A stretch of DNA of 64,000 nt from Acidimicrobiia bacterium (GTDB lineage Bacteria > Actinomycetota > Acidimicrobiia > Acidimicrobiales > SHLQ01): positions 2,147,645 through 2,211,644 of the forward strand of contig JAWPMS010000001.1 in the NCBI GenBank assembly GCA_033344795.1, in the 5' to 3' direction. The position numbers were made by a program, and so were the translations under genes. Below the pieces are notes generated by a model that saw only the letters and a list, made by a program, of their open reading frames with translations, had not been told where the DNA came from and made no database searches. How positions within the stretch are numbered: the stretch's first letter is position 1; each line of letters starts with the position of its first letter. This document shows, piece by piece, positions 12,839 to 36,988 of the stretch.

Positions 12839-14100
12839 GTTCTCATTCTCACATCGGCGCTTCGTGCGTGTCCCTCCATGCCCTCATAGCGGGAGATGCG
12901 AGCTGCGTACGGTGCTTCGCGTCTGCTGGCCTCGTCGGTCATCCGCTGCCAGGTCAGTTGTTTGGTGAAACGAAGTGCGTTCAAGCCGCCCGAGTATCGT
13001 GCCGCTCTGCCAGTCGGGAGAATGTGGTTCGGACCCGTCGTCTTGTCACCAAAGGTGACCGTGGTTTGTTCTCCGAGAAACAATGAGCCGTAGTTTCGGA
13101 GTCGACCAAGCCACCAATCCAGGTCTTCGGCCATCACTTGCAGATGTTCGGGGGCGTACGAATCGCAGATGCTGGCTGCATCCTCGACCGAATCGGCCAC
13201 GATGATTTCGCCGTAGTCCCGCCACGCCGCAACCGCAGATGTTCGCGCCGGGTCAGGCAGTGCTTCAGCGACATCATCGATGAGTTCCGACACCGCGTTT
13301 GCGAGCAGGTCGGAGGTGGTCACGAGCCACACCGGTGAGTCAGGGCCGTGCTCGGCCTGGCCAATGAGGTCGGTGGCGACCGTGTGTGCGTCGGCGGTGT
13401 GGTCAGCAGCGATCATGGATTCGGTCGGACCGGCGATGACATCGATTCCCACTCGACCGAAGAGCTGTCGTTTGGCTTCGGCGACAAAGCTGTTGCCCGG
13501 TCCGACGATCACGTCAGCTTCGAGTCCGGTGAACAAACCGAAGGCCATGGCCCCGATCGCCTGCACCCCTCCCAGGCCGAGGACGTGGTCGGCTCCGGCA
13601 ACTCGAGCTGCGTGCAGGATGGCTGGGTGGACCCCGCCGCGGTCTGGTCGAGCGGGGCTCGCCACGACGATGTCGCGAACACCGGCCACCGAAGCGGTGG
13701 TCACGCTCATGAGCGCCGACGCGATGTGGGCGAAACGACCTGCTGGCACGTAACAACCGGCGACGTCGACAGGGATCGTGCGTTGTCCGGTGAGGAGTCC
13801 CTCCTCGAGCTCGAGTTCGAAGTCCGTGATCGAAGCGAGCTGTGCCTCGGCAAAGGCGCGAATGTGGCGGTGCGCGTGTTCGATGTCGGCGATGAGTTGT
13901 GCGTCGAGTTGGGAGGTGGCGGCGGCGATCGTGGACTCGTCGATCAGCACGGGCTCCATCCAGTCATCGAACTCCGCTGCCAGGGCAGCGGCGGCCTCTT
14001 CCCGATCGCTTTCGAGGCGGGTCAACAGGTCTCGAACTCGAATGCCGACACCGGGATCCGCTTCGTTCAGAGGACGGGGAGCCTGCTTGACATATCTCAT
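12835..14100 (-). CDS. histidinol-dehydrogenase-family oxidoreductase (HisD paralogue; HpsN-like candidate)
   Basis: 421-aa ORF. HisD family motifs VGPGNSFVAEAK, IAGPTES, IGQAEHGPDS, APEHL, GPNHILPT. Sits outside any his operon, next to sulfonate genes. Confidence 0.8.
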   Translation of the reverse strand: MRYVKQAPRPLNEADPGVGIRVRDLLTRLESDREEAAAALAAEFDDWMEPVLIDESTIAAATSQLDAQLIADIEHAHRHIRAFAEAQLASITDFELELEEGLLTGQRTIPVDVAGCYVPAGRFAHIASALMSVTTASVAGVRDIVVASPARPDRGGVHPAILHAARVAGADHVLGLGGVQAIGAMAFGLFTGLEADVIVGPGNSFVAEAKRQLFGRVGIDVIAGPTESMIAADHTADAHTVATDLIGQAEHGPDSPVWLVTTSDLLANAVSELIDDVAEALPDPARTSAVAAWRDYGEIIVADSVEDAASICDSYAPEHLQVMAEDLDWWLGRLRNYGSLFLGEQTTVTFGDKTTGPNHILPTGRAARYSGGLNALRFTKQLTWQRMTDEASRREAPYAARISRYEGMEGHARSADVRMRT

Positions 14101-14141: not shown

Positions 14142-14156
14142 GTTAGAGGATCTAAC
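14142..14156. promoter_or_regulatory. perfect palindrome GTTAGA-GGA-TCTAAC (candidate operator) in the hisD-like/tpa divergent intergenic region
   Basis: Read directly from sequence. A GTTAGA half-site also occurs at 14121-14126. The same palindrome occurs at 23943-23957 upstream of xsc. Confidence 0.55.
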
Positions 14157-14232: not shown

Positions 14233-15609
14233 ATGTCAGCTACTACGGATCATGAATTGGCAAAGGCACACTTGCTGCCGCACTACACCAAAGGCGCAGC
14301 CTGGCGACAAGAGACCCCGATCATGGTGAGCGGTCGAGGGTGTTATGTAAAGGATGACGAAGGAAACGAATACCTCGATGGCCTCGCCGGGCTGTTTTGC
14401 TCGAACATAGGCCACGGGCGACTCGATCTCGCGGCGGCGGCTGGCAAACAAGCTGAGAAGTTGGCGTTCTTCCCGAACTGGGGTTTTGCGACACCGCCGA
14501 CCATCGAGGCAGCAGCTCTCATCGCCGAACTCGCCCCAGGTGATGACCTGAGCGAGGTCTTCTTCGTCAGTTCTGGCTCGGAGGCGGTTGAGTCCGCCGT
14601 GAAGTTTGCTCGGAACTATCACGTCAGCCGCGGCGACGAGTCGCGTTACAAGGTGATCGCTCGCGACTGGGCCTACCACGGCACCACTCTCGGAGCGCTG
14701 TCGGTCACGGGCATTCCAAAGTTCCGCAAACAGTTCCTTCCGATGCTCTGGGACGGCGTTCGCCATGTGCCGAACACGCTCGATGGAGCCAGCGCGGAGG
14801 GCGTGCCCGTCGAGGACTGGCCATGTGTCACCGTGCTCGAACAAACCATCATCGACGAGGGCCCCGAGACCGTCGCCATGGTCATCGCCGAGCCGGTACA
14901 GAACGGACGTGGCGCTCTCGTTCCGCCGGATGGATACTGGCAAGAGCTCCGACGTATTTGCGACAAGTACGGCATCTTGCTTTGTGCCGACGAAGTCATC
15001 AGCGGGTTTGGTCGGATGGGCTCTTGGTTCGCAAGCGAACGTTTCGACATTCAGCCAGACATGATCACCTTTGCCAAGGGCGTGACTTCGGCGTATCAGC
15101 CTCTCGGTGGGGTGGTCATCAAACGTTCGCTGGTCGAGCAGACCTGGGATTCCGATCTCGCCATGTTCAACCATGGCTCGACGTTTGGTGGTCACCCGGT
15201 CGCGTGTGCGGTGGCCGTTGCGAACATCACCGCCTTGCGTGACGAGGGCGTCCTCGACAACGTCAACAACAATGAAGCGTATTTCCAGGAGCACTTGACG
15301 AAGCTCGTGGACCGGTTCGACATCTTGAAGGAATGGCGCGGTTGTGGATATTTCTATGCGGTCGAGTTCGTCGAGAGCAGAGAGGCCGGCATTGAACTGA
15401 GCGAGGAGGATCGCGCGGCGTTGCAAGGTGGAGTGCTGGGATCATTCGTGCGTGACTCGAAGCTGCTGATCCGCCCAGATGATCGTGGCTGCACGATGTT
15501 GGTGCTCTCCCCGCCGTTGATCGCCGACCGAGATGTGCTAGACGATCTCATGGAAAGATTGTTCCAAATATGTGAACGAACCGAGGCGTGGCTACGCGAG
15601 GACCGTTAA
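14233..15609 (+). CDS. tpa: class III (omega) aminotransferase, taurine:pyruvate aminotransferase-like
   Basis: ORF 14194..15609. ATG 14233 is preceded by GAGGAGG. Class III fold motifs (…VSSGSEAVESAVKFAR…ADEVISGFGRMG…). Substrate inferred from tauABC/xsc/pta context. Confidence 0.7.
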   Translation: MSATTDHELAKAHLLPHYTKGAAWRQETPIMVSGRGCYVKDDEGNEYLDGLAGLFCSNIGHGRLDLAAAAGKQAEKLAFFPNWGFATPPTIEAAALIAELAPGDDLSEVFFVSSGSEAVESAVKFARNYHVSRGDESRYKVIARDWAYHGTTLGALSVTGIPKFRKQFLPMLWDGVRHVPNTLDGASAEGVPVEDWPCVTVLEQTIIDEGPETVAMVIAEPVQNGRGALVPPDGYWQELRRICDKYGILLCADEVISGFGRMGSWFASERFDIQPDMITFAKGVTSAYQPLGGVVIKRSLVEQTWDSDLAMFNHGSTFGGHPVACAVAVANITALRDEGVLDNVNNNEAYFQEHLTKLVDRFDILKEWRGCGYFYAVEFVESREAGIELSEEDRAALQGGVLGSFVRDSKLLIRPDDRGCTMLVLSPPLIADRDVLDDLMERLFQICERTEAWLREDR

Positions 15610-15717
15610 GGCGGCTACTCTCTGCGCTGGCCTCGGCCAACGAATCGCCGCACCCGAAGTCGTGTGCAGCGGTCGTCTCAAACGACTGAGGCGGAAAAAC
15701 TCCCGGAGGGGGATTTT

Positions 15718-16734
15718 ATGAAGATGAGAATGAAGATGATTATGGCGACGATGCTCGCCGGAATTGCGCTCGCTGCTGCAGCATGTGGCGGAGACAGCGT
15801 AGACACGTTGAACGTTGCGTATTTCTCCGGCTGGCCGCTGCCACCGCAGATCGGACAAGACGATGGCAGCTTTGCTGATGCCGTCGGTGTCGATGAGATC
15901 AACTGGGTTGCACTTCCCGACGGTGGGTCCATGGCTGACGGCATGATCGCTGGCGACATCGATATCGCCTATTCGATTGGTCTCACCCCGTTTGCCGTGA
16001 AGGCAACCAACGGTGCTCCCATCTCGATGGTCGGTATCGCAGTTGCGTATGCCGACGCCGACAACTGCATGGTGCAGGGCGATCTTGGGTACAACCGTGA
16101 CAACGCTGCAGAAACGCTCAGCGGTGCCACGATCCTCACCCCGATTGGCAACATCACGCACTACAAGCTCCTCAACACGCTCGAGTTCTTGGGTGTCGAC
16201 CAGGGCGACGTCGAGGTGCTTCCACACGAGAGCGGCGACGCCACGGCTGCAGCTTTTGCTGCCGGTGACATCGAGGTCGGCTGTGCATTCGGCGGGCCTC
16301 TCGTGACCATGGCCGACGCTGGCGGCGTGCCCCTGCTGACGGGCGAGGAGACGTCGAACGAGGTCGGAATCAAGACCTACGACGTGACCGCTGTTCGCAA
16401 CGACTTCGCTGACGAGAACCCAGGTGTTGTCACCGACTTCTTGAAGGCCAACGAGGAGTTCAACCAGAAGTGGGCTGCTGATCCGGCGACGAACAATCCA
16501 ATCATCGCCACCGCTGCTGGTATGGATGAGGTCGGCAACTTCCTCAGCGGACCGACATGGTTCACCTTCCCAAGCGTCGACGAGCAACTCAGTGATGCGT
16601 GGCTCGGAAGCAGTGTTGCTGACGTCATGCTCGAGCAGCTGACGTTCTTCAGGGATCAGGGTGAAATCGACAGCATTGCCGATGACTACGCACAGTTCAT
16701 CGACACCAGCTTCCTCGAGGACGCCAAGGGTTGA
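15718..16734 (+). CDS. tauA: taurine/sulfonate ABC transporter substrate-binding protein (TauA/NMT1-like), Cys-containing signal peptide
   Basis: ORF 15664..16734. ATG 15718 follows GGAGGGGG. Signal MKMRMKMIMATMLAGIALAAAAC. Mature part follows the TauA pattern (…THYKLLNTLEFLGV…AAAFAAGDIEVGCAFGGPL…VTAVRNDFADENPGVVTDFLKA). Confidence 0.75.
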   Translation: MKMRMKMIMATMLAGIALAAAACGGDSVDTLNVAYFSGWPLPPQIGQDDGSFADAVGVDEINWVALPDGGSMADGMIAGDIDIAYSIGLTPFAVKATNGAPISMVGIAVAYADADNCMVQGDLGYNRDNAAETLSGATILTPIGNITHYKLLNTLEFLGVDQGDVEVLPHESGDATAAAFAAGDIEVGCAFGGPLVTMADAGGVPLLTGEETSNEVGIKTYDVTAVRNDFADENPGVVTDFLKANEEFNQKWAADPATNNPIIATAAGMDEVGNFLSGPTWFTFPSVDEQLSDAWLGSSVADVMLEQLTFFRDQGEIDSIADDYAQFIDTSFLEDAKG

Positions 16735-16741
16735 GCTGGTT

Positions 16742-16796
16742 CTCACCTCAGGTGAGCAGTTAGCTTGAGAGCCGGCGGCGTTTGCCGCCGGCTCTC
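16742..16796 (+). terminator. two stem-loops directly after tauA (CTCACC-TCA-GGTGAG; GAGAGCCGGCGGC-GTTT-GCCGCCGGCTCTC)
   Basis: Inverted repeats read from sequence. Located inside the operon between the SBP gene and the ATPase gene. Confidence 0.5.
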
Positions 16797-16828
16797 TGAT
16801 TATCGGGGATAAATAGGGGGAGTGGGCG

Positions 16829-17629
16829 ATGAAGCCGCTGAGCGTACAAAACATTGAGATGGTCTACGAGATTCCGAAAGGAGACTCGGTCCATGCGCTC
16901 AGCGATGTGTCATTTGACCTTGAGGCTGGGCGTTTGCTGACACTTCTTGGCCCGAGCGGTTGTGGCAAGACCACGCTGTTGAACATCCTTGCGGGTTTCT
17001 TGGCGCCAACCTCGGGCAGCGTCATGCTCGGCGGTGAGCCGGTGACGGGCCCCAGCAAAGAACGGGGCATGGTCTTTCAACAAGGCGCGCTGTTCGAATG
17101 GCAGTCCGTTGCGAAGAACATTTCGTTCGGCCCTCGGATGGGTGGGCAGAAGCACAACGACTTCCTCCCAGAGGTCGAGCGCCTGCTCGGTGTCGTGGGT
17201 CTGACCGGCTTCGGCGACAAGCAGATCTATGAACTTTCCGGCGGCATGCAGCAGCGAGTGGCGCTGGCTCGTTGTTTGGCCAATGACCCCGAGATGATGC
17301 TGATGGACGAGCCGCTCGGCGCGCTCGACGCCCTCACTCGCGAGAAGATGCAGAGTCTGATTCTCAACCTGTGGGATGAGACCGGCAAGAGCATCGTGCT
17401 TGTGACGCACAGCGTGGAGGAAGCGCTGATCTTGGGCGACATGGTCTTCGTCATGGCTCCCCGCCCTGGCCGAATCGAAAAGGTCTATGAGCTTCCCTTC
17501 GCACGACGTGCCCTCACCGAGGACCCGCGTGAGTTGAAAGCCACAACTGAATTCCAGGAAGTGAAGGAAGAAATCCTCAGCTTCATCTGGGAAATGGAAG
17601 AAGAGATCATGGGTCGGGAGGCAGGATGA
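16829..17629 (+). CDS. tauB: ABC transporter ATP-binding protein (TauB/NitT family)
   Basis: 266-aa ORF. Walker A GPSGCGKTT, signature LSGGMQQR, Walker B MLMDEP. Confidence 0.85.
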   Translation: MKPLSVQNIEMVYEIPKGDSVHALSDVSFDLEAGRLLTLLGPSGCGKTTLLNILAGFLAPTSGSVMLGGEPVTGPSKERGMVFQQGALFEWQSVAKNISFGPRMGGQKHNDFLPEVERLLGVVGLTGFGDKQIYELSGGMQQRVALARCLANDPEMMLMDEPLGALDALTREKMQSLILNLWDETGKSIVLVTHSVEEALILGDMVFVMAPRPGRIEKVYELPFARRALTEDPRELKATTEFQEVKEEILSFIWEMEEEIMGREAG

Positions 17630-18621
17630 GCGCATTCATGAACGGAGGGGTCTCCGACGAGAAGACGCTGGAGGTCAAAGACCCGTCCAAATCACCTCGC
17701 TCGAGACGATCTGACAACAAGACTGTGGCCTTCGGCGACGCAAGCGCGGTTCGCAGCGTGCCGGCGTGGAGCGTGTTTTCCTTCATCCTGCTGATGCTGC
17801 TCTGGTGGTCGATCACCAAGGCCTGGGGGTATCCCGAGGACTTCAAAGCAACGCTCGACTCCGGACTTCGCGATCGTGAACTGTTCGAGCAGTGTCAGCG
17901 CGCCGACAATTGCGACACGAACAGCTACACGCAGATCGTCAGCCCCCTGACCTTCCCAAGTCTTCGCGACACGACAACTGCCGCTGGCACCCTGTTCTCT
18001 GATGGCTTTCGCAACATCTCCTTGTGGACACACACATGGGCGAGCCTTTGGCGAGTCTTGAAGGGCATGTTCTGGGGCACGGTCATCGGTGTACCGGTCG
18101 GCCTCTCCATGGGCCTGTCCAGCAGAGCCCGCGGCTTTTTCGACACGATCGTCGAAGCGTTCCGACCAATTCCACCGCTTGCACTTCTGCCGTTGTTCAC
18201 GCTCAGCTTCGGTTTGGGTGAAAAGGCTGCCGTGCCTCTGCTCGTCTTCGCGTCGGTCTGGATCATGATCATCGCCAGCCGTGCCGGTATCCGCAATGCA
18301 CAACTCTCGAAGGTCCGGGCTGCCTATTCGCTGGGAGCATCCAAACGGCAGCTTCTGCTGAAGGTCCTCATCCCAAATGCGCTGCCCGAGATGTTCACCG
18401 GACTGCGAGTGGCCCTTGGGGTGAGCTGGGGAACCCTCGTGGCTGCAGAGCTGTCAGGTGTGCAAGAAGGACTTGGTGCCATGATCTCCATCGCCAAGAA
18501 CTTCTCCCGTCTGGACGTCATCGTGGTGGGCATCGTCATCATCGCCGCCCTCGGTGTCTTGATGGACGTGCTGTTGCGGTTCCTCGAGTCGGTCCTCATC
18601 CCGTGGCAGGGCAAGGGCTGA
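17626..18621 (+). CDS. tauC: ABC transporter permease (TauC/NitT family)
   Basis: 331-aa ORF with multiple TM segments. ATGA overlap with tauB. Confidence 0.8.
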   Translation: MSAFMNGGVSDEKTLEVKDPSKSPRSRRSDNKTVAFGDASAVRSVPAWSVFSFILLMLLWWSITKAWGYPEDFKATLDSGLRDRELFEQCQRADNCDTNSYTQIVSPLTFPSLRDTTTAAGTLFSDGFRNISLWTHTWASLWRVLKGMFWGTVIGVPVGLSMGLSSRARGFFDTIVEAFRPIPPLALLPLFTLSFGLGEKAAVPLLVFASVWIMIIASRAGIRNAQLSKVRAAYSLGASKRQLLLKVLIPNALPEMFTGLRVALGVSWGTLVAAELSGVQEGLGAMISIAKNFSRLDVIVVGIVIIAALGVLMDVLLRFLESVLIPWQGKG

Positions 18622-20123
18622 TGGCCCAAGCGGGCTCGCGAGATGCAACGTCGATCGAGGCTCTCGCGTCCGCCGCGACCGACTTCTTGCTCAACGGTCC
18701 GCATGGCGACGACCCGGTTCTCAACTTTCTGAGTCCAGCCGAGCTGGCGGCGGCGTTCGATGACGTGATCCCGCTCGAGTTGGCAGATGAACTGCCCGCC
18801 CGGTCAGCAGAAGAACTACGCGCTGCGGTCGATCTGGTCATCCGGCACTCCGTGCAGACGAGCCACCCGCGGTTTTTCAACCAGAACTTCGCGGGCCCGG
18901 ACCCCATCGCCGTCGTGGGGGATTGGTTGGGAGCCGCGTTGAATACGACCAACGCCACGTTCGAGGCCGCTCCCGTGTTCACGCTGATGGAGGGGGCTGT
19001 ACTTCGCAAGCTCGCTGCTGTTGCCGGCATCGATCACGACAGTCGCTTCGACGCTCCACCGCCGGGCATGTTTGCACCTGGCGGATCGACTGCCACGTTG
19101 TACGCAATGCAGCTGGCTCGTCATCGGCGTCAACCAAACATGGTCGACGAGGGCGCTGGTTCCGAGCGACTCGTACTCTTCGTGTCCGACGCAGGGCACT
19201 ACGCGGCCGTGAAGTCGGCCGCCTTGCTCGGACTCGGCCGCAACAGTGTGATCGAGGTGGCCACCGACGACGTGGGTGTCATGGACGTCGACGCGCTTCG
19301 AGATGCGATCGACGCGGCGCGTACTGCGGGCGACTCGCCTTTCATGGTCATTGCGACGGCCGGCACAACGGTCACGTCGGCATTCGATCCGATCGACTCG
19401 ATCGCCGACGTGTGCCAGGCCGAGAGCCTCTGGCTCCACGTCGACGGATGTTACGGAGGCTCGGCACTTTTCAGCGCTGGCGAACGTCACCGTCTGGCCG
19501 GCGTCGAGCGTTCCGACTCGTTCGTCTGGAACCTTCACAAGATGATGGGCGTGACGCAGCAGTGCACGGCACTGCTTCTCGCCGATCCGGCGCAGCTCGG
19601 ACCGTGTTTTGCGACGGGAGCGGACTACATCTTTCAGCCCGACAAGCTCTATGGCGAGTTCGACTCGGGCGACAAACACTTTCAGTGCGCTCGCCGAGTG
19701 GATTCGTTGAAGCTGTGGCTTCTCTGGCAGGCGCGCGGCGATGCAGGGTTCGAGGCGCGGATCGACCACTCGGTCGCGATGGCGAATCGGGTGCGGCAGC
19801 TCGTCGACGACTCCGATGGAGAGTTCGCCTTCGTGGTTCGCGGCGATTTCACCAACGTCACGTTCCTGTGGGTCCCGCCCGAGTTTCGGCCGTTCGATCT
19901 GGCCGCGCTGTCCGAAGCAGACCACGCTGCGCTCCACGCGTTGTCACCGGTGATGAAGTCCAAGATGCAAGCTGAGGGAACGAGTCTGCTCGGGTTCCAA
20001 CCCGTGCTCGGCATCAACTGCCTGCGGTGGCTCTTCATGAACGACGCTGTAGGTGTTGACGACGTCGATGCGGTCTTCGCGCACCTCGGTCGGTATGGAC
20101 GTGAGGCCTGGGCCGAGCGATGA
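18621..20123 (+). CDS. group II PLP-dependent decarboxylase (glutamate / cysteine-sulfinate decarboxylase-like)
   Basis: ORF 18603..20123. ATG 18621 overlaps the tauC stop (TGATG). PLP-lysine motif [17 protein letters not shown] resembles the NPHKMMGVPLQCSA motif of GAD/CSAD enzymes. Confidence 0.8.
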
Positions 20124-21013
20124 GCAAGCTCCAGACGGAGTGGTTCGAACGCGCACGACGCCACCCGAAACGAATTGTGCTCGCAGACGCTGGCGACGAA
20201 CGAGCCCTCGACGCAGCGGAACGGTTGGCGCGCGAGGGCCTCGTCGTGCCAATCCTCACCGATGACCTCGATGTGGTTCGCACAAGGGCGGTGGTCGCTG
20301 CTGCCGCAGAAGTAGGCGATCGAGCAGACTTGGATGATCCTTTGCACGTGGCGGTGCTGATGGTGCGCGCCGGGGAGGCTGACGGATGTGTGGCAGGAGC
20401 CAGCAGGCCGACGGCTGATGTACTTCGCGCCGGGATCCATCTACTCGGTGTCGCTCCCGATGCGACGACGATCAGCAGCTGCATGTTGATGTTGCTGCCC
20501 GACGGCAATCCAATCGTTTTTGGCGACTGTGCGGTGCTTCCCGATCCTGATATCGAACAGCTCGCATCGGTTGCGGTTTCGTCCGCGCGAACGTTCAGGC
20601 AACTCACGGGTCATGAGCCAGCTGTGGCGATGCTGTCGTTCTCCACAAAAGGCAGCGCTGATCACCCCCGCGTCGACAAGGTCCGCGAGGCCACCTACCT
20701 TGCGCAGCGCCAGGCGCCCCATCTGCGCCTCGATGGCGAGTTGCAGTTCGACGCAGCGTGGGTCCCCGCGGTCGGCGCTGCGAAGGCGCCGGACTCTGAG
20801 GTCGCAGGTTCGGCGAACGTCTTCGTCTTCCCTGATCTCGACTCCGGCAACATCGCGTACAAGATTGCCGAGCGCCTCGGTGGTGCTGCAGCTTTTGGGC
20901 CGCTCCTTCAAGGTGTGGACGGAGTCTTACACGATCTCTCTCGGGGTTGTTCGGTCGAGGACATCGTCAACGTGGCGGTGATCTCCGCACTCCAAGCGCA
21001 ACACGACGGCTAA
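20120..21013 (+). CDS. pta: phosphate acetyltransferase
   Basis: 297-aa ORF with ATGA overlap to the decarboxylase gene. Phosphate acetyl/butyryl transferase pattern (…[14 protein letters not shown]…[24 protein letters not shown]). Confidence 0.75.
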
Positions 21014-21046
21014 CGGTATGGTGAAAGTCGCAAACTGAAGGACCTT

Positions 21047-21634
21047 GTGGCAACCACCGACAGCGATAGTCGCCCCCAACTCGACACAGAAGTCGTTCTT
21101 TCCATCGCGGGCAAGATCGCCGACGAAGAGGGCCTCGACGCTCTGACGCTCACCCGTGTCGCACGCGATCTGGGGATCAGTCAGCCTGCGTTGTATCGCC
21201 ATGTCGACGGGTACGACGATCTGATGCGAAGTCTCAGTCTCGAGGGTCGCCAACTGCTCGAAGAGCGACTTCGCGAGGCAGCGGTGGGGGTCTCTGCCGA
21301 TGATGCCGTACGGGCCATGGGCCGTGCCTGGCGCGAGGTTGTTCGAGAGCGGCCTGGTCTTCTTGCGGCAACGGATCGTTACCCATGTGCAGGAGATGCC
21401 GAACTCGAGGAGGCCGTCGAGAACATCGTCGAGACTCTCGGATTGGCACTCGTGGGGTATGGCCTCGATGAGGTCGACCGAGTCCACGCGGCGCGAGCGC
21501 TCCGGAGCGCGTTTCATGGGTTTGCTCATCTCGAGGCCGGTGACGGTCACCCCTTGCCCCATGACCTCGATGACACGTTCGAACACATCGTCGAGATCCT
21601 GTGCGCCGGAATCCAACGGTTGGCCGACGCGTAA
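21047..21634 (+). CDS. TetR-family transcriptional regulator
   Basis: 195-aa ORF (GTG start). HTH LTLTRVARDLGISQPALYRHV. Confidence 0.85.
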   Translation: MATTDSDSRPQLDTEVVLSIAGKIADEEGLDALTLTRVARDLGISQPALYRHVDGYDDLMRSLSLEGRQLLEERLREAAVGVSADDAVRAMGRAWREVVRERPGLLAATDRYPCAGDAELEEAVENIVETLGLALVGYGLDEVDRVHAARALRSAFHGFAHLEAGDGHPLPHDLDDTFEHIVEILCAGIQRLADA

Positions 21635-21664
21635 CGAGAGCTGCGAGCGTCTGGGGGAATCGTC

Positions 21665-22972
21665 ATGAGCTGTCGTCACTACGAGTTGGGGATGGACGGC
21701 GCTGACACGGCGTTCAGCGTCGACACTTCAAACATCACGTTTGGTGCAGGGAGTCTTTCCGAGGCGGGCGACGTTGCACGCAGTCTCGGGATCGGTCGGG
21801 TGGCCGTGTTCACCGATGAAGTCTTGGCGGCGAGCCCACATGTGGCGCGTGTGTTGGAGTCGCTCGCCGGTGCGGGTGTCGAGATCGCGTTGTATGCCGA
21901 CGTCCGTGTCGAACCGACCGATGAGTCCTTTCGAGAGGCAACCAGATTCGCCACCGAGGCGAAGGTCGACGGTTTCGTCTCTGTCGGCGGTGGTTCCGTG
22001 ATCGATACCGCGAAGGCCGCGAACCTCTATTCCACCCACCCCGCCGACTTCCTCGCATATGTGAACGCCCCGATTGGTAGCGGTCTGTCCGTACCCGGCC
22101 CGCTGAAACCGCACATTGCCTGCCCCACGACGTCGGGAACTGGCAGTGAGTGCACGGGTATCGCGGTATTCGACCTGCTCGAGATGAGAGCCAAGACCGG
22201 AATCGCGTCGAAGATGCTTCGTCCAACGCAAGCCCTCATCGATCCGGAGACCACACGTACCCTTCCGCCAAACGTCGTTGCCTCGACCGCATTCGACGTG
22301 CTGAGCCATGCGCTCGAGTCGTATACGGCTCGGCCATATTCCAAACGCCCGGCGGCCGCCGCCCCTTCACTTCGGCCGTCGAGCCAAGGTTCGAACCCGT
22401 GGAGTGACCTTGGGTGCGCCGAGGCACTCCGTCTCCTCGGTTTGTATCTGGTTCGGGCAGTCGACAGCGCAGACGATGTCGAGGCTCGGCATCAGCTGAT
22501 GTGGGCGGCGACCCTGGCTGGTATCGCCTTCGGCAACGCTGGCTGCCATGCTCCGCACGGGATGTCCTATTCGGTTTCTGGCCTCGTGGGTGACTTTCGA
22601 CCGGACGGCTATCCGATCGCTGCGCCAATCATCCCGCACGGTATGTCGGTCATCGTGAACGCACCTTCCGTCTTTCGCCACACCGCCGCAGTAACGCCTG
22701 AGCGGCATCTCGATGGTGCGCGTTGGTTGGGCGCGGACGCGAGTGATGCGGCGATATCGGAGGCTGGCGAGGTCCTCTCGGAACGAATCATCGAACTCAT
22801 GAGGCGCACGGGCATGCCAAACGGGCTGCATGGGGTTGGCTTCGGCACCGACGACATCGATGCGCTCGTTGATGGATCGATGAAACAACGTCGGCTTCTC
22901 GACAACGCTCCCATCGAGATCGACCGCGAGGTTCTCTCCGACCTCTATGTGGGCGCAGCTTCGTACTGGTAG
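21665..22972 (+). CDS. iron-containing alcohol dehydrogenase, hydroxyacid-oxoacid transhydrogenase (ADHFE1)-like
   Basis: 435-aa [13 protein letters not shown]…[18 protein letters not shown]…YVNAPIGSG…[17 protein letters not shown]…[13 protein letters not shown] closely follows the HOT subfamily pattern as I recall it. Confidence 0.75.
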
Positions 22973-22988
22973 ATCCCGCGCCCTGTCG

Positions 22989-23789
22989 TCAGCCGAGCTG
23001 AAGGGCGGACAACTTGTCGAGGCCGAGGGCCTCCCGGATTTCCTCGGCTGCAGCGATCGCCCTCTCGCCGATGACATTGAGGCGATCGCCGGCCATGCGA
23101 ATCGTCGGTGCCTGGATTGCGATCGCCGCGACGGCCAATCCGTCTGCATTGAGAATCGGTGCGCCGACGCAGCTGACGCCCTCGATGCTCTCTTGATTGT
23201 CGACGCTGTACCCGCGTGAGCGTGTGCGTCGCAGCTCCTCTTCGAACACCTCGCGAGAGGTGATGGTCATTGGCGTGACCGCGCGGTAGTTGAGTTCGGG
23301 GAGGTCCGCCCCCGAGAAGGCCAGAAGTGCCTTGCCCATCGAGGAGCAATGCATCGATATCCGGCTGCCAGCCGGTTGATCGAACCGCAACGGCTGCACG
23401 GACTCGACGCGGAGAATCACGACGACCTCGTTGCCGTCGGCCACGCCCATGTTCACGGACTCGCCAGTTATCCCGCCGATTCGCTCCAGTATTGGAAGTG
23501 CTCGATCGAAGCCCCATGAGTCTCGGGCGCTTTGTCCAAGCACGTGTGCCGCGTGACCGAGGTGGTACCGGTCGGTCTCTGGACTCTGCTCGAGGTAGCC
23601 ACTTCGGACCAGTGCTTGCACCAGCCGATGCACCGTGCTCGGGCTGAGCGATGAACGTTTGGCGATATCGGTGATGCCCTGTTCGGGCGAGTCCACGAAA
23701 CTCGAGAGTACCTCGAGAGCGCGATCGATCGACTTGGTGCCGGCAACGGTCTTGTTGCCAGAAGCAGCGTCGGTGATTTTCGCACTCAT
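22989..23789 (-). CDS. IclR-family transcriptional regulator
   Basis: 266-aa ORF. N-terminal wHTH SIDRALEVLSSFVDSPEQGITDIAKRSSLSPSTVHRLVQAL plus an IclR effector domain. Confidence 0.85.
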   Translation of the reverse strand: MSAKITDAASGNKTVAGTKSIDRALEVLSSFVDSPEQGITDIAKRSSLSPSTVHRLVQALVRSGYLEQSPETDRYHLGHAAHVLGQSARDSWGFDRALPILERIGGITGESVNMGVADGNEVVVILRVESVQPLRFDQPAGSRISMHCSSMGKALLAFSGADLPELNYRAVTPMTITSREVFEEELRRTRSRGYSVDNQESIEGVSCVGAPILNADGLAVAAIAIQAPTIRMAGDRLNVIGERAIAAAEEIREALGLDKLSALQLG

Positions 23790-23942
23790 CTGATACGCCC
23801 AAGATAGCCGTCCAACGTGCGCTCACCAGTAGTCGGCGTCACGCGCCCAGTAGGAGTTAGAACGTAGATTCCACTATATGGAACAGCTGAAACGGGTCTA
23901 GTATGGTGAGCGATTATGACTGATGTTCTCTCTTACTGATGT

Positions 23943-23957
23943 GTTAGAGCTTCTAAC
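23943..23957. promoter_or_regulatory. perfect palindrome GTTAGA-GCT-TCTAAC (candidate operator) upstream of xsc
   Basis: Read from sequence. Same arms as the site at 14142-14156. The same intergenic region also holds TTCCA-N5-TGGAA (23869-23883) and GGTGA-N6-TCACC (23970-23985). Confidence 0.55.
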
Positions 23958-24030
23958 ATGGCAGGCTGTGGTGAGATATGTCACCAGCGGGATCCAACCG
24001 CCAACTTCGTACTGAAACGGGGAAGTACCA

Positions 24031-25800
24031 ATGACACGAATGACGCCCAGTGAGGCATTTGTCGAGACGATGGTTGCCAATGGTGTCGATACCACCTTCG
24101 GCATCATGGGTTCGGCGTTCATGGACGCGATGGACATCTTCGCTCCGGCCGGAATTCGCCTCGTACCCGTCGTGCATGAGCAGGGCGCAGCCCACATGGC
24201 AGACGGGTATGCGCGCGTCTCGGGCCGTCACGGTGTCGTGATCGGTCAGAACGGGCCGGGTATCTCCAACTGTGTCACGGCGATTGCGGCAGCCTTCTGG
24301 GCTCACACTCCGGTCGTGATCGTGACCCCACAGACGGGCTCGGGCGGCATTGGTTTGGGCGGCTTTCAAGAAGCCAACCAGCTGCCGATGTTCGAGGAGT
24401 TCTGCAAGTACCAAGGCCAGGTCGACAACGAGAGCCGGATGGCCGAGATCACCGCACGGGCCTTCGACCGTGCAATTTCCGACATGGGGCCAACTCAGAT
24501 CAACATTCCTCGCGATCGTTTCTATGGCGACATCGACGTCGAGATTCCACAGCCAAAACGCCTCGATCGTGGTCCCGGCGGATCACGGACCCTGGATGAA
24601 GCAGCGGCCCTGCTCGCAGAAGCCACCTTCCCCGTCATGGTCAGCGGTGGTGGCGTCGTGCAGGGCGATGCGATGGACGAAGCAGTGGCCCTCGCAGAAC
24701 GTCTCGGATGCCCGGTGGTCAACAGCTACCTCCACAACGACTCGTTCCCAGCCAGCCACCCGCAGTGGACGGGCCCGCTTGGGTATCAGGGTTCAAAGGC
24801 CGCAATGAAGCTGGTCAACAAGGCCGACGTCGTGCTTGCACTCGGGACGCGCCTTGGTCCGTTCGGAACACTGCCACAACACGACATGGACTACTGGCCC
24901 AAGGACGCCAAGATCATCCAGGTCGACGCAGACCACAAGATGCTTGGCCTGGTGAAGCCTGTTTCGGTCGCCATTCATGGTGATGCGGGCGAAGCCGCAG
25001 TTGCGCTCCTCGACCGCCTCAACGACGGTCGCACCCTCGCCTGTGACGCAACCAAAGATGAGCGCGCCGCCACGACACAAGCGGAAAAGGACGCATGGGA
25101 AGCCGAGCTCGACGAGTGGATTCACGAGAAGGATGACTTCTCACTCGAGATGATCGAGGAAGCCAAGAACGAAGAAGGCAACTGGCTGCACCCGCGTCAA
25201 GTACTTCGTGAACTGGAGAAGGCGATGCCTCCCCGAGTCATGGTCTCGACCGACATCGGCAACATCAACTCCGTGGCGAACAGCTACCTGCGCTTCGAGG
25301 AGCCGAGAAGTTTCTTTGCCGCTATGAGCTGGGGCAACTGTGGCTACGCTCTGCCGACGATCATCGGAGCCAAGGCGGCCGCTCCCGATCGTCCAGCCAT
25401 CTCCTACGCAGGCGACGGCGCGTGGGCTATGAGCATGACCGAGATTCTCACGGCAGTGCGCCACGACATCCCGGTCACCGCAATCGTCTTCCACAACCGC
25501 CATTGGGGCGCCGAGAAGAAGAACCAGGTCGACTTCTACGGTCGTCGCTTCGTCGCAGGCGAACTCAACGGTGGCGAGAACTTCGCAGAGATCGCCGAGA
25601 CATTTGGCGCTGTTGGCGTGCGCGTCGACGACATCGACAACGTCGGTCCGGCGCTCAAGGCCGCAATCGATGCGCAGATGAACGAAGGCAAGACCACCGT
25701 GATCGAGATCATGTGCACCAAGGAGTTGGGCGACCCGTTCCGCAAGGATGCGCTCTCGAAGCCTGTGCGCCACTTGCCCAAGTACAAAGACTACGTCTGA
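24031..25800 (+). CDS. xsc: sulfoacetaldehyde acetyltransferase (ThDP-dependent)
   Basis: 589-aa ORF. N-terminus MTPSEAFVETMVANGV…GIMGSAF and ThDP motif GDGAWAMSMTEILTAVRHDIPVTAIVFHNRHWGAEKKNQVDFY match my memory of Xsc. Length is typical (about 590 aa). Confidence 0.8.
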   Translation: MTRMTPSEAFVETMVANGVDTTFGIMGSAFMDAMDIFAPAGIRLVPVVHEQGAAHMADGYARVSGRHGVVIGQNGPGISNCVTAIAAAFWAHTPVVIVTPQTGSGGIGLGGFQEANQLPMFEEFCKYQGQVDNESRMAEITARAFDRAISDMGPTQINIPRDRFYGDIDVEIPQPKRLDRGPGGSRTLDEAAALLAEATFPVMVSGGGVVQGDAMDEAVALAERLGCPVVNSYLHNDSFPASHPQWTGPLGYQGSKAAMKLVNKADVVLALGTRLGPFGTLPQHDMDYWPKDAKIIQVDADHKMLGLVKPVSVAIHGDAGEAAVALLDRLNDGRTLACDATKDERAATTQAEKDAWEAELDEWIHEKDDFSLEMIEEAKNEEGNWLHPRQVLRELEKAMPPRVMVSTDIGNINSVANSYLRFEEPRSFFAAMSWGNCGYALPTIIGAKAAAPDRPAISYAGDGAWAMSMTEILTAVRHDIPVTAIVFHNRHWGAEKKNQVDFYGRRFVAGELNGGENFAEIAETFGAVGVRVDDIDNVGPALKAAIDAQMNEGKTTVIEIMCTKELGDPFRKDALSKPVRHLPKYKDYV

Positions 25801-25920: not shown

Positions 25921-26844
25921 GTGAATGAACAGCCGACGGAACTGGTTGATGTTGAAGAGGTCTTCGGATTTCGGTCCGATCTGAAGGTGCAGGCGTTTGT
26001 CGAGCCCACCGAGTGGACGCCCCAGATCGATGATGCCTACCAGTTCGATCCAGAGGTAACGCTCGCCATCTTGTCGGGTTTCGTGCACAACCGCCGAGTG
26101 CTCGTTCAGGGTGCGCATGGCACAGGAAAGTCGACCCACATCGAACAGGTAGCGGCCCGGCTCAATTGGCCAGCCGTGCGCGTGAATCTCGATGGCCACA
26201 TCAGTCGCATGGACCTGGTTGGTCGCGACACCATCGTTGTGCGCGACGGTTTGCAGGTCACCGAATTCGCAGAAGGCATGTTGCCATGGGCGCTGCAGAA
26301 CCCCGTTGCGTTGATCTTCGACGAGTTCGATGCAGGGCGCCCGGACGTCATGTTCGTCATTCAGCGAGTTCTCGAAAAGGACGGCCGGCTGACACTGCTG
26401 GACCAGAATCGGGTCATCACCCCGCATCCAGCGTTTCGCCTTTTCGCCACAGCGAACACGGTTGGTCTGGGCAACCTGACGGGCCTGTATCACGGGACGC
26501 AGGTGCTCAATCAAGCACAGATCGACCGTTTCAACGTCGTTGCGACCCTCAACTACCTCTCTCCGGAATCGGAGATCGACATCGTGCTCGCCCAAGTGCC
26601 TGACGCGAACCGCGAAACCGTTGCGAAGATGGTGGCGGTGGCCGGACTCAGCCGTGACGGCTTCGCGGCTGGCGATCTGTCGACGGTGATGTCTCCACGA
26701 ACGGTGATCAGCTGGGCGGAGAACGACGTCATCTTCGACGATGTCGGAGCGGCGTTCCGTCTTGCGTTCGTCAACAAGTGTGACGAGGCCGAACAACCGA
26801 TCGTCGGCGAGTACTTCCAACGAGCGTTCTCACAAGAACTCTGA
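25921..26844 (+). CDS. cobS: cobaltochelatase subunit CobS (MoxR-type AAA+ ATPase)
   Basis: 307-aa ORF (GTG start). …[33 protein letters not shown]…[41 protein letters not shown] follows the CobS pattern. Confidence 0.8.
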
Positions 26845-26854
26845 GGACCACTGC

Positions 26855-28540
26855 ATGGATGCGGAGAGTCGACGCCTCGAACGCAGCGGTGCCGCTGTCG
26901 TGCGCGCACTGGGTCGGTCTCCTCGCGCCGAGTATCGAGCTCGGGTCCTCGAGGTGGACGACCGTCCAGTCGCCGTGTCCACTCCGTACCTCACGGATGA
27001 CCAAGCGGGCGAGTCGCCGGCGCGCGGAATCTACGATGCCCTTGGTGCCCGGCTTCGCTACAGCGAACGAGCGCTGCATGAATCCCTGCAACCTGATGAC
27101 ATCGTTGCTCGGGTCGTGTTCGACATGGTCGAACAGCTGCGCTGCGAGTCGCAGATTCCGGACGAACTCGTCGGGGCGCGAGAGAACATCGAGGTGGCGT
27201 TTCGTCGCTGGTGCGCCGGCCAGGAACTCACTCGGACTGCCATCGGATTGTTGCTCTTCACCGTGCTGCAGATGGCGCGGGCACGCCTCATCCGCCCCAT
27301 TCACGACGAGTTGATCGAGGATCAGATCGAAGCGACGAGAGCGAACATCTCACCGATCATCGGGGTCGCTCTGAAAGGACTCAAGGAGCACCGGACCGAT
27401 CAGCGCCAGTTCGCTGTGCCGGCGCTCTCGCTGGCGAACGCCATTGCCGAGATGGTGTCAAGCGAGACAGAGCTGGACCCCGGCGACACCGAGGCCAGCA
27501 TCGGTGCGCTCTTCATCCCGCCGGAGTGGGGTGCGGATGATCCGAAGGAGGGCGATGCGGCTATCGGAGCTACAGCGAGATCGGCCGACCGAGCAGACGC
27601 GGCTTCATTGGATCGGGTTGGTGGGTACCACGTGTTCACTCGTGAGTACGACCAAGAGCTTCGCGCGGAGTCGCTCTACCCTCGTGACGCGCGCCGCGAA
27701 CTTCGTGCATCCCTCGACGACCAGATTGCCGCACAATCGGTGAGTCCGTTCACGCTCGCTCGACGATTGCAACGGCTCTTTCTCGGGTTTGAGCGCGATG
27801 GGTGGCGATCGGGCGAGGAGCACGGCCTTCTCGATGCCGCCCGCCTGGGTCAGATCGTCGCCAACCCGGCCAACCGGACCGTCTTTCGACAGGAACGCTT
27901 TCGCCCCGTGGCTCCTGCGGTGGTCTCGTTTCTGATCGACAACAGCGGCTCGATGAAGCGGCAGCGACATGAGACGGTGACGGTACTCGTCGACACGCTC
28001 AGTCGGGCGCTCGATCTCGCCGGAGCCCGCAGCGAAATTCTCGGCTTCACAACGGCCAGCTGGAACGGCGGCGAAGCACTTCGTGAATGGCGTCGGGCGG
28101 GTGAACCCGATGCTCCAGGAAGGCTGGCCGAAACGAGTCATCTGATCTACAAGGACGCCGACACGTCGTGGAAGCGGAGCCGGCTCGCCGTGGCGTCGAT
28201 GATGAAGACGCACCACTTTCGCGAAGGCATCGACGGCGAGGCGATCGTGTGGGCCTACCGACGCCTGCTCGGCCGTCCTGAGCCGCGCAAACTTCTCGTG
28301 GTCATCAGTGATGGCGCCCCGATGGAAGCAGCGACGATGAACGCCAACGGCGAGTCGTTCCTCGAGGCACACCTTCGTAGCGTGGTGCACTCCATCGAGC
28401 GGGAGGGTGAGGTCGAGATCGGGGCGGTGAGCATCGACCAGCCGGTGGACTCGCTGTTCGGTCGATCGGTCGAGATGGATCTGTCCGGCACCCTCACGCT
28501 TGGCGAATATGGCCTGCTGGAGCGCCTCTTCCGCCGATAA
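26855..28540 (+). CDS. cobT: cobaltochelatase subunit CobT (VWA-domain protein)
   Basis: ORF 26741..28540. ATG 26855 chosen because it lies downstream of the cobS stop. C-terminal VWA/MIDAS segment VSFLIDNSGSM. Confidence 0.7.
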   Translation: MDAESRRLERSGAAVVRALGRSPRAEYRARVLEVDDRPVAVSTPYLTDDQAGESPARGIYDALGARLRYSERALHESLQPDDIVARVVFDMVEQLRCESQIPDELVGARENIEVAFRRWCAGQELTRTAIGLLLFTVLQMARARLIRPIHDELIEDQIEATRANISPIIGVALKGLKEHRTDQRQFAVPALSLANAIAEMVSSETELDPGDTEASIGALFIPPEWGADDPKEGDAAIGATARSADRADAASLDRVGGYHVFTREYDQELRAESLYPRDARRELRASLDDQIAAQSVSPFTLARRLQRLFLGFERDGWRSGEEHGLLDAARLGQIVANPANRTVFRQERFRPVAPAVVSFLIDNSGSMKRQRHETVTVLVDTLSRALDLAGARSEILGFTTASWNGGEALREWRRAGEPDAPGRLAETSHLIYKDADTSWKRSRLAVASMMKTHHFREGIDGEAIVWAYRRLLGRPEPRKLLVVISDGAPMEAATMNANGESFLEAHLRSVVHSIEREGEVEIGAVSIDQPVDSLFGRSVEMDLSGTLTLGEYGLLERLFRR

Positions 28541-28658
28541 GCACGGTCAGCTGCCCGGACACCCAAAGTCCATGTGATTGGTTGTACGGACCAAAAACTC
28601 GCGTGCTCTTCACGTTGGTCGGTGCTACGCCACGGCAGAGCTTCCTACGGTGCTCGGC

Positions 28659-29345
28659 GTGACCAAGAGTGCATTTCCAGTAGCGAGGCCGTATCCGGTC
28701 AATCTCCGACTTGCCGGCAAACCGGTCCTTGTCGTCGGCGCGGGGAATGTCGCCGTGCGCAAGGTGGGGCAGCTCCTCGCATCGGGCGCCGCCGTCACGG
28801 TCGTCGGTTTGCAGGTGGATCCCCGACTCTTCGGTCTCGCAGCTGAATCCCGTGGCCCGGGATCGGGTTCGGTGAGTATCGAACAGCGGGCCTACGAGGT
28901 GGGCGAGGTTGCCGCTTACATGCTCGCGATCACCTGCACCGACGACGGAGCCGTAAACAGTCGAGTGCACGATGACGGACTCGTGGCGGGTGTGTGGGTC
29001 AACTCCGCTGACGATCCGACGAACTGTGAATTCACGTTGCCGTCTGTTGTACGAACTGGTGATCTGCAGATTGCGATTTCGACAGAGGGGCGCTCACCAG
29101 CCCTTGCCATGTGGTTGCGACAGCGTTTCGAGCACGAGTTCGGCGGTGAGTGGGGAGAACTGCTCGATGTGCTGTCCGACGTCCGAGATGAGGCAAGACG
29201 CGAATTGGGAACCTCTGAGTTGGCCGGGTGGATCGGTGCCCTCGATTCGGTCATTCCCCGTTGGCTCGAGCGGGCGAATCCCGACGAGGCCCGTGAAACA
29301 CTTCGTCACCACCTTGGGCTGAAAGATCTGGAGCAGGTTCGATGA
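28659..29345 (+). CDS. precorrin-2 dehydrogenase / sirohydrochlorin ferrochelatase (SirC/CysG N-terminal-like)
   Basis: ORF 28578..29345. Rossmann motif LAGKPVLVVGAGNVAVRKV. Start uncertain: TTG 28578 or GTG 28659. Confidence 0.7.
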   Translation: MTKSAFPVARPYPVNLRLAGKPVLVVGAGNVAVRKVGQLLASGAAVTVVGLQVDPRLFGLAAESRGPGSGSVSIEQRAYEVGEVAAYMLAITCTDDGAVNSRVHDDGLVAGVWVNSADDPTNCEFTLPSVVRTGDLQIAISTEGRSPALAMWLRQRFEHEFGGEWGELLDVLSDVRDEARRELGTSELAGWIGALDSVIPRWLERANPDEARETLRHHLGLKDLEQVR

Positions 29346-35377: not shown

Positions 35378-35433
35378 GGCCATTGGTCAGAGGTGCCTTC
35401 TATGAGGTGTGCCCGATCACACATGATGTCAGA

Positions 35434-36978: not shown

Positions 36979-36988
36979 AAGCCTTGCG

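Follow-up and report, generated by a model that had tools for sequence, protein, structure and literature searches.

Organization of the locus

We analysed a 64,000-nt stretch of contig JAWPMS010000001.1 from an Acidimicrobiia bacterium (the window, with a G+C content of 58–64%), in which a gene encoding a group-II decarboxylase dependent on pyridoxal phosphate (PLP) and similar to CSAD and GAD lies among genes of the taurine degradation type. The decarboxylase gene belongs to a single plus-strand operon with tpa-like, tauABC-like and pta genes, as indicated by the gene calls and by three overlaps between stop and start codons: ATGA at 17626–17629 for tauB and tauC, TGATG at 18619–18623 for tauC and the decarboxylase gene, and ATGA at 20120–20123 for the decarboxylase gene and pta (Table 1). 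Overlaps of this kind are common in bacterial operons, where they mark operon membership and are unremarkable by themselves. The 500-residue product contains the PLP motif NLHKMMGV, with Lys307 inside it, the tpa-like gene is located upstream of the decarboxylase gene, and a bona fide xsc is found downstream. The overlaps, the PLP motif and the positions of tpa and xsc had been described in the first-pass annotation of this DNA and were borne out by our analysis. Its left boundary, placed at position 14233, did not hold, since it cut off two genes of the same system on the minus strand (11648–14100). Its picture of the operon missed the cuyC-like gene and hpsN upstream. It also left out two potential sinks for sulfite that are encoded further downstream, namely a siroheme reductase cluster and a complex resembling SoeABC.

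Table 1. Features in and around the decarboxylase operon (positions in the window)
Feature	Position	Strand	Evidence
cuyC-like, DegT/DnrJ/EryC1-family PLP enzyme, putative cysteinolate racemase	11648–12838	-	PF01041, E 3.8e-54
hpsN, histidinol-dehydrogenase family, putative L-cysteinolate to L-cysteate dehydrogenase	12835–14100	-	458 bits (E 2.7e-136) to HpsN 8v35
Palindrome GTTAGAGGATCTAAC, putative operator, hpsN/tpa divergent promoter region	14142–14156		exact match
tpa-like class-III aminotransferase, putative taurine:pyruvate aminotransferase	14233–15609	+	PF00202, E 1.5e-84
TauA-like ABC substrate-binding protein	15664–16734	+	TIGR01729, 120 bits (cut-off 304)
tauB-like ABC ATPase	16829–17629	+	PF00005; NF008421, 264 bits (cut-off 357)
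tauC-like ABC permease	17626–18621	+	PF00528; NF007545, 198 bits (cut-off 342)
Group-II PLP decarboxylase resembling CSAD and GAD, putatively converting L-cysteate to taurine	18621–20123	+	PF00282, E 1.7e-77
pta, phosphate acetyltransferase	20120–21013	+	PF01515, E 2.4e-94; NF007233, 330 bits (cut-off 310)
TetR-family regulator, candidate palindrome binder	21047–21634	+	PF13305, PF00440
Fe-dependent alcohol dehydrogenase	21665–22972	+	PF00465, PF25137
IclR-family regulator, divergent from xsc	22989–23789	-	PF01614, PF09339
Palindrome GTTAGAGCTTCTAAC, putative operator 74 bp 5' of the xsc start	23943–23957		exact match
xsc, sulfoacetaldehyde acetyltransferase	24031–25800	+	TIGR03457, 1003.7 bits (cut-off 676.4)
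CobS-like AAA+ / CobT-like VWA pair 3' of xsc	25921–28540	+	TIGR01650, 483 bits; TIGR01651, 281 bits; both under cut-off
Siroheme synthesis genes and NirA/Sir-type reductase, likely sulfite sink	28578–31926	+	
Precorrin-2 dehydrogenase-like	28578–29345	+	
Uroporphyrinogen-III methyltransferase	29342–30130	+	TIGR01469, 289 bits (above cut-off)
NirA/Sir-type siroheme reductase for sulfite or nitrite	30121–31926	+	PF01077, PF03460
LysR regulator	34443–35357	-	
4Fe-4S/NrfD fusion protein	35365–36978		
Molybdopterin oxidoreductase, 954 aa	36989–39853		

The decarboxylase belongs to a sister family of CSAD

When compared with the sequences of the Protein Data Bank, the decarboxylase appeared closest to human CSAD (E 3e-104) and mouse CSAD (E 6e-103), followed by GAD65, GAD67 and GADL1 (E 1e-97 to 1e-94), with all other solved decarboxylases at E 1e-52 or weaker. 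The alignment to CSAD covers nearly the full length of the protein, and Phe90, His193, Lys307, Tyr336 and Arg469 correspond to Phe94, His191, Lys305, Tyr335 and Arg466 of the mouse enzyme. His193, Tyr336 and Arg469 are invariant across the family, and the N-x-H-K sequence around the PLP lysine, typical of the CSAD/GAD clade, is present as NLHKMM. The family was studied in 80 loci from species-representative genomes, almost all of them metagenome-assembled genomes (MAGs) of Acidimicrobiia (marine and soil Acidimicrobiales and Ilumatobacter), in which homologues of the window proteins were located by tblastn and selected open reading frames (ORFs) were searched against Pfam. Gene calling based on G+C content at third codon positions and clustering of all ORFs of the 80 loci were set aside as noisy, with fused and shadow ORFs.

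Substrate selectivity in this enzyme group is said to depend on a motif X1-x19-X2-x-X3, which Agnello and colleagues reportedly defined in 2013 with Phe/Ser/Tyr in CSAD. According to the alignments with 2jis and 2okk, from which the F/S/Y residues of CSAD and the S/N/F residues of GAD were read, the decarboxylase carries Phe90/Thr110/Ala112 (F/T/A). Hence, only X1 agrees with CSAD sensu stricto, and the GAD65/67-type motif is absent as well, with Phe90 in place of Ser and Thr110/Ala112 in place of Asn/Phe. The F/T/A motif is kept in 70 of the 80 family loci regardless of genomic context. A search of 1.8 billion representatives clustered at 50% identity yielded about eight clusters at least 46% identical to the decarboxylase, beyond which came groups with the motifs FSY (CSAD-type), YNH, YSA and WSY, the FSY set being separate and more distant. 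By these sequence comparisons the decarboxylase is a member of a distinct sister family of CSAD, neither CSAD sensu stricto nor GAD. Two family members of unusual length, P0122 (844 aa) and P0123 (686 aa), were rejected as informative fusions, their N-termini consisting of junk extension and Maf-like read-through.

In mouse CSAD, Phe94 blocks glutamate and helps to bind the sulfur oxyacid side chain specifically. Both CSAD and GADL1 prefer cysteine sulfinate, and they also act on aspartate and, secondarily, on cysteate (Mahootchi et al. 2020 bioRxiv). Phe90 is likewise predicted to exclude glutamate from the enzyme studied here. Source annotations name its homologues glutamate decarboxylase, and its top NCBIfam matches are diaminobutyrate decarboxylase and PanP, as might be expected of an ordinary glutamate, aspartate or diaminobutyrate decarboxylase with no role in sulfonate metabolism and a merely coincidental gene order. 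Nevertheless, no curated NCBIfam model covers the protein, those two matches lying far under their cut-offs (191 bits versus 900 and 145 bits versus 606, respectively), Phe90 stands where GAD has Ser, and the linkage to hpsN–cuyC and tau genes described below recurs in different arrangements that chance does not explain, all of which makes this explanation highly improbable.

An hpsN and cuyC-like pair lies divergently upstream

The two genes divergent from tpa are themselves coupled, the stop codon of hpsN overlapping the start codon of the cuyC-like gene by ATGA at 12835–12838. The hpsN product reached 458 bits with HpsN of Cupriavidus pinatubonensis (8v35) versus 236 bits with the best true HisD, and is 55% identical to HpsN of Leisingera. 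According to the structural paper on HpsN, the His126 motif is the signature for sulfonate recognition that sets HpsN apart from HisD; here it is kept as GRFAH, aligned to GRYAH of the C. pinatubonensis enzyme, and Glu318/His319 and Asp352/Lys353 are kept as well. A housekeeping hisD, considered because the product scores above the TIGR00069 cut-off, was ruled out, since HpsN structures score double and the His126 motif is present.

The cuyC-like product shares 46.8% identity (96% coverage) with the protein encoded between cuyA and cuyB, where cuyC is expected, in the plasmid cluster cuyA-cuyC-cuyB-hpsN-cuyZ of Leisingera methylohalidivorans, and 53.7% with a Polaromonas homologue found beside tauABC-like genes, a racemase and a gene of the sulfate exporter family. 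It combines the traits by which Liu et al. recognize CuyC, namely PF01041, co-location with hpsN and about 45% identity or more to CuyC orthologues (PMC12814064), a level reached here with these positional homologues. As proven biochemically with the Bilophila enzymes, CuyC of the DegT family racemizes D-cysteinolate and HpsN oxidizes L-cysteinolate to L-cysteate, after which CuyB and CuyA release sulfite in the published route; the same authors consider CuyC a marker specific to cysteinolate degradation (PMC12814064). HpsN of the window would thus be a putative L-cysteinolate to L-cysteate enzyme, an activity known from the Bilophila enzyme only.

The Polaromonas cluster offers a side observation. 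On the plasmid CP087967.1 of Polaromonas sp. P1-6, an hpsN homologue located between tauC and cuyC appears as two overlapping pieces without an annotated coding sequence (L081:6593-7850). This hpsN is probably a pseudogene disrupted by a frameshift; apart from it, the cysteinolate cluster is canonical and includes genes for TauABC-like transport.

Searches by tblastn with the Leisingera proteins detected no match to CuyA, CuyB or CuyZ in the window and, across the 80 loci, none to CuyB or CuyZ and one weak CuyA-like match (L079). The window consequently lacks the CuyB and CuyA pair that defines a canonical D-cysteinolate cluster, and the decarboxylase occupies the place of these two enzymes.

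hpsN and cuyC are the most conserved neighbours of the decarboxylase gene

Across the 80 loci, the most conserved neighbours of the decarboxylase gene are hpsN and cuyC. An hpsN gene with at least 50% identity is linked to it in 25 loci, at a distance of 456 bp or less in 23 of them, and two arrangements occur: decarboxylase gene, hpsN and cuyC in this order on one strand (n = 14), or a divergent layout (n = 11). When only the 49 loci with 3 kb or more of sequence on each side are counted, the decarboxylase gene and hpsN are adjacent in 15. Moreover, in 12 of the 25 hpsN-linked loci both neighbours form a single uninterrupted ORF of about 800–835 codons combining PF00815 and PF01041 (L016, L017, L018, L021, L028, L032, L037, L040, L041, L044, L047 and L073; for instance L017:11463-13976), a fusion absent from the text of the cysteinolate paper (PMC12814064). 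Genes of the taurine route (tpa, tauABC, pta or xsc) accompany the decarboxylase gene in 11 loci with shuffled gene order, as in L005, which reads tpa-tauABC-pta-tetR-dec-FeADH-iclR-xsc (dec, the decarboxylase gene). Since the nearest neighbours belong to families that form L-cysteate, the substrate of the decarboxylase is likely L-cysteate rather than cysteine sulfinate, and the growth substrate is probably cysteinolate.

The activity could still be that of a true cysteine sulfinate decarboxylase, yielding hypotaurine, from which the aminotransferase would make sulfinoacetaldehyde, with release of sulfite, or which would be oxidized to taurine; the hpsN–cuyC link would then reflect a shared regulon only. 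The preference of the closest characterized relatives, CSAD and GADL1, and the importance of Phe at X1 for binding cysteine sulfinate speak in favour of this possibility, as does the FMO-like flavoprotein encoded near the decarboxylase in eight family loci lacking hpsN. Yet no cysteine dioxygenase was seen among the window ORFs scanned, the strongest conserved neighbours belong to families that make L-cysteate and not a sulfinate, Ala stands where the CSAD motif has Tyr, and Xsc and Pta would be superfluous for hypotaurine. For the window, we regard sulfinate as an unlikely substrate. The FMO-like flavin monooxygenase genes lie within a few kb of the decarboxylase gene (L009:13886-15676, L024, L030, L049, L056, L058, L061 and L074). 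In mammals, hypotaurine is oxidized by FMO, and these neighbours might indicate that some members of the family act in a sequence leading from cysteine sulfinate via hypotaurine to taurine.

The literature on HpsN enzymes also reports the oxidation of R-2,3-dihydroxypropanesulfonate (R-DHPS). Accordingly, hpsN and cuyC might serve DHPS or another sulfonate in a separate unseen pathway, with the decarboxylase using exogenous L-cysteate only, in agreement with three relatives (L004, L005 and L083) that carry no cuyC–hpsN beside the decarboxylase gene. Against this, sulfolactate is not decarboxylatable by a PLP-dependent amino-acid decarboxylase, the window contains no homologue of CuyA, the lyase ending the DHPS–cysteate route (SuyAB, SlcD and ComDE were not specifically searched for), CuyC is a cysteinolate-specific marker (PMC12814064), and the hpsN–cuyC fusions stand directly beside the decarboxylase gene. 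A DHPS function of the pair therefore seems very unlikely to us.

Further neighbours recur in subsets of the family. A protein of about 830 residues resembling dimethylglycine/sarcosine dehydrogenases, with DAO, FAO_M and GCV_T domains, is encoded just 5' of the decarboxylase gene in 11 loci (for example L017:7458-9974), eight of which also have hpsN, so N-methylated sulfonates of the N-methyl-taurine and N-methyl-cysteinolate types may feed the same module. In another group (L047:14-1057, L063, L067, L073 and L079), a dioxygenase of the TauD/TfdA family, an MFS transporter and a luciferase-like monooxygenase lie beside cuyC–hpsN and the decarboxylase gene, and neither tpa nor xsc occurs in the flanks. 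The presence of TauD-family genes near this trio fits taurine as the product of the decarboxylase and suggests that in these loci taurine would be desulfonated oxygenolytically for sulfur assimilation.

The closest relative, L083, has a decarboxylase 86% identical to that of the window, with overlapping decarboxylase and pta genes directly after a DNA ligase gene (L083:8953-12375; also L084). The block usp-nitroreductase-cuyC-hpsN-tpa-tauABC, which spans about 10.2–18.6 kb of the window, is missing in L083, pointing to an insertion or deletion between close relatives.

A shared palindrome as a probable link between the transcription units

The palindrome GTTAGA-N3-TCTAAC occurs at exactly two sites in the 64-kb window, both without mismatch, one in the hpsN/tpa intergenic region and the other between iclR and xsc, and no further site was found in the window even when two mismatches were allowed. 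In 1.2 Mb of related loci, ten sites with up to one mismatch were detected in nine loci, all of them intergenic and adjoining pathway genes: 5' of the decarboxylase gene (L003), 5' of tpa (L004, L006, L008 and L025), between hpsN and tauA (L059), and beside or directly 5' of tetR (L005 and L016). By comparison, 89 permuted control palindromes gave a mean of 0.57 matches, with a single outlier, a codon-like sequence scattered through the loci. The shared palindrome thus supports a single regulon composed of cuyC–hpsN, the operon from tpa to pta, and xsc. One regulator acting on this operator probably controls the gene set, and the TetR-family protein encoded after pta, whose gene is kept in the cluster in L004, L005, L016, L025 and L033, is a candidate binder.

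This arrangement also bears on whether the decarboxylase has a biosynthetic role, in which cysteinolate or cysteate would be imported and turned into taurine for use as a compatible solute, and the location in a catabolic operon would be accidental or a means of balancing pools. Biosynthesis of taurine by bacterial homologues of CSAD is mentioned in PMC12019592, citing Agnello et al. 2013, and many family loci have the decarboxylase gene, or the decarboxylase gene with hpsN and cuyC, without tpa or xsc in the flank. In the window, in contrast, overlapping codons couple translation of the gene to that of tauC on one side and pta on the other, a putative operator is shared with xsc, the overlap with pta is kept in the closest relative, and synthesis together with degradation of taurine would be futile. 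Taken together, we judge a biosynthetic role quite improbable.

One ORF of this region was discarded. The minus-strand ORF at 22945–23826, the longest at this place, is rich in arginine and lies in the wrong frame, an artefact often met in DNA of high G+C content; the genuine gene is iclR, in another frame (22989–23789).

Taurine route, transport and fate of sulfite

The gene of the tpa-like aminotransferase is preceded by a GAGGAGG ribosome-binding site before its ATG, and the nearest solved structures to its product are omega-transaminases; the taurine:pyruvate aminotransferase function is putative and derives from the genomic context. Pta passed NF007233 and just missed the equivalog model TIGR00651 (291 versus 311 bits). 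The substrate-binding protein bears only a weak resemblance to TauA, so the compounds imported with its help may be cysteinolate or cysteate instead of, or besides, taurine. A TauABC-like set accompanies cuyC in Polaromonas too. The Fe-dependent alcohol dehydrogenase, kept at 77–79% identity in L005, L016 and L025, scored far under the cut-offs of ErcA (197 bits), GbsB (185 bits) and SarD (181 bits); one candidate role for it is that of an isethionate/sulfoacetaldehyde oxidoreductase. The CobS/CobT-like pair following xsc occurs without CobN, and the adjacency of xsc and cobS recurs in L004.

No match to a sulfite exporter of the TauE/SafE type (PF01925) was found among about 56 larger ORFs scanned across the window, in agreement with the first-pass annotation. 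Two possible sulfite sinks downstream of xsc may explain this absence. The first is the siroheme reductase cluster. The second, presumably controlled by the LysR regulator next to it, is encoded at 35365–39853. By size and subunit make-up it resembles SoeABC, a sulfite:quinone oxidoreductase of the cytoplasm, in a form that joins SoeB and SoeC in one protein; no NCBIfam model identifies its 954-aa molybdoenzyme as SoeA. This SoeABC-like complex could oxidize the sulfite released by Xsc.

A putative route from D-cysteinolate to acetyl-CoA through taurine

Cysteinolate (2-amino-3-hydroxypropanesulfonate) is an abundant algal sulfonate whose degradation by bacteria was elucidated as late as 2025, and then for the CuyA sulfo-lyase route only (Liu et al., J Biol Chem, December 2025, PMC12814064). 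From gene content and context we conclude, with moderate confidence, that the region would serve the breakdown of D-cysteinolate, an osmolyte of algae, and of free L-cysteate, both of which would be channelled into the classical taurine route. After uptake, possibly via the TauABC-like transporter, the CuyC-like PLP enzyme would convert D-cysteinolate to L-cysteinolate, and HpsN would oxidize the latter to L-cysteate with two NAD+. The CSAD-like decarboxylase would then form taurine and CO2, the Tpa-like aminotransferase would yield sulfoacetaldehyde, Xsc would split it into acetyl phosphate and sulfite, and Pta would produce acetyl-CoA. The sulfite would be either reduced, by the siroheme reductase whose gene follows xsc, or oxidized, by the SoeABC-like complex. 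In this scheme the decarboxylase would stand in for CuyB, a cysteate racemase, as well as for CuyA, a D-cysteate sulfo-lyase, and a second racemase would be superfluous, because group-II decarboxylases use the L-amino acid that HpsN delivers. The L-cysteate decarboxylase activity itself is inferred from synteny with L-cysteate-forming families and with taurine-consuming genes.

The first-pass annotation had suggested a catabolic role for a CSAD-type decarboxylase as the entry of C3 amino-sulfonates into the taurine/Xsc route, and this idea is supported by the CSAD-like Phe, the hpsN–cuyC neighbours, the recurrence of tau, pta and xsc genes, and the palindrome. Gene identities at the family level, synteny, gene fusions and the shared palindrome are observed directly. 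Several points nonetheless weigh against the proposed route. All substrate assignments, the role of the transporter and the binding regulator derive from homology and genomic context. Thr and Ala at X2 and X3 differ from the Ser and Tyr of all characterized CSADs, so specificity is not simply transferable from these enzymes, and the CuyC identities refer to positional homologues of Leisingera and Polaromonas rather than to the assayed Bilophila CuyC. HpsN enzymes also oxidize R-DHPS. The best NCBIfam model for the aminotransferase is the generic class-III NF005102, which scored 555 bits against a cut-off of 574, and the TauA-like protein stays far under the TIGR01729 cut-off (Table 1) and reached 97 bits with TauA of Escherichia coli (6ssy). 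About two thirds of the fully flanked family loci have neither hpsN–cuyC nor tau genes nearby, and the close relatives L004, L005 and L083 carry the decarboxylase gene with tau genes or pta and no cuyC–hpsN in the sequenced flank. Given these three loci, free cysteate or another precursor may be the usual input.

The proposed route has much in common with the CuyC-HpsN-CuyB-CuyA pathway. Both have a tight pair of a DegT-family PLP enzyme and HpsN making L-cysteate, both belong to marine bacteria, and CuyC homologues in Actinomycetota are mentioned in the cysteinolate paper (PMC12814064). The published pathway, however, continues with CuyB, CuyA and the exporter CuyZ to pyruvate, NH3 and sulfite, whereas here a CSAD-like decarboxylase and Tpa-Xsc-Pta would lead to acetyl-CoA, CO2 and sulfite; on a decarboxylase, a taurine intermediate or xsc, that paper is silent (PMC12814064).

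Bacteria such as Rhodococcus, Ruegeria and Bilophila dissimilate taurine with TauABC, Tpa, Xsc and Pta. The operon shares with this classical system Xsc, Pta, a class-III aminotransferase and a TauABC-like transporter in one cluster, but differs in the decarboxylase gene between tauC and pta, the divergent cuyC–hpsN upstream and the weakly TauA-like binding protein, as well as in having no alanine dehydrogenase or TauE/SafE, with the siroheme reductase cluster and the SoeABC-like complex as possible sinks for sulfite instead. In the ComDE route, cysteate or sulfolactate is converted to sulfopyruvate and then to sulfoacetaldehyde, the substrate of Xsc, ComDE being a thiamine diphosphate enzyme that acts on the 2-oxo acid after transamination. 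Both routes shorten a C3 sulfonate to C2 by decarboxylation prior to desulfonation by Xsc; here, in contrast, the decarboxylation would be PLP-dependent and act on the amino acid, before transamination. As for the decarboxylase itself, it shares the fold, the PLP chemistry, the Phe at X1 and the catalytic His, Lys, Tyr and Arg with animal CSAD and GADL1 and with CSAD of Synechococcus PCC 7335, but it carries F/T/A instead of F/S/Y, is found in a catabolic operon and not beside cysteine dioxygenase, and falls in a separate clade almost entirely from Acidimicrobiia.

The first-pass annotation knew of no described operon with such a decarboxylase step built in, and our full-text searches of literature available without subscription found no report linking cysteinolate or cysteate catabolism to a decarboxylase-taurine-Xsc route. 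Between an upper pathway and a lower taurine pathway that are both known, the locus would thus employ a distinct family of CSAD-like enzymes in a catabolic capacity not described before. We give an even chance to the broader proposition that the F/T/A proteins constitute a so far unrecognized family, nearly restricted to Acidimicrobiia of sea and soil, which decarboxylates L-cysteate for catabolism and would define a third route for the mineralization of cysteate and cysteinolate, via taurine and then Xsc or, in some lineages, TauD.

Other features of the window

Near the left end of the window, a gene for a PLP enzyme of Cys/Met metabolism (569–1777) overlaps the start of a gene similar to the alpha subunit of haem-dependent oxidative N-demethylase (1645–2616), the latter being also kept near the decarboxylase gene in L083 and L084. 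At the opposite end, the minus strand at 55520–63110 carries a molybdenum hydroxylase cluster of the CO-dehydrogenase/xanthine-dehydrogenase type, which is unrelated to the taurine operon and comprises a CoxE-like VWA protein, XdhC, an 811-aa large subunit binding the molybdenum cofactor and an FAD-binding subunit.

Implications for marine Acidimicrobiia

In a metatranscriptome study of a North Sea bloom, Ilumatobacter and other Acidimicrobiia stood out for their unusual proficiency in using taurine, and two of the family loci (L056 and L074) come from one MAG of that study. If our proposal is correct, marine Acidimicrobiia would decarboxylate L-cysteate to taurine and reuse the taurine machinery, so that transcripts of the taurine pathway in the sea may partly report the consumption of C3 sulfonates. 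It would likewise provide a function for many genes annotated as 'glutamate decarboxylase' or 'pyridoxal-dependent decarboxylase', and the trio of the decarboxylase gene, hpsN and cuyC would serve as a marker for cysteinolate turnover in metagenomes. The F/T/A motif offers a natural test of how CSAD-type enzymes discriminate between sulfonate and sulfinate. Overall, taurine would become a central catabolic intermediate, and these abundant Actinomycetota would be important consumers of algal cysteinolate.

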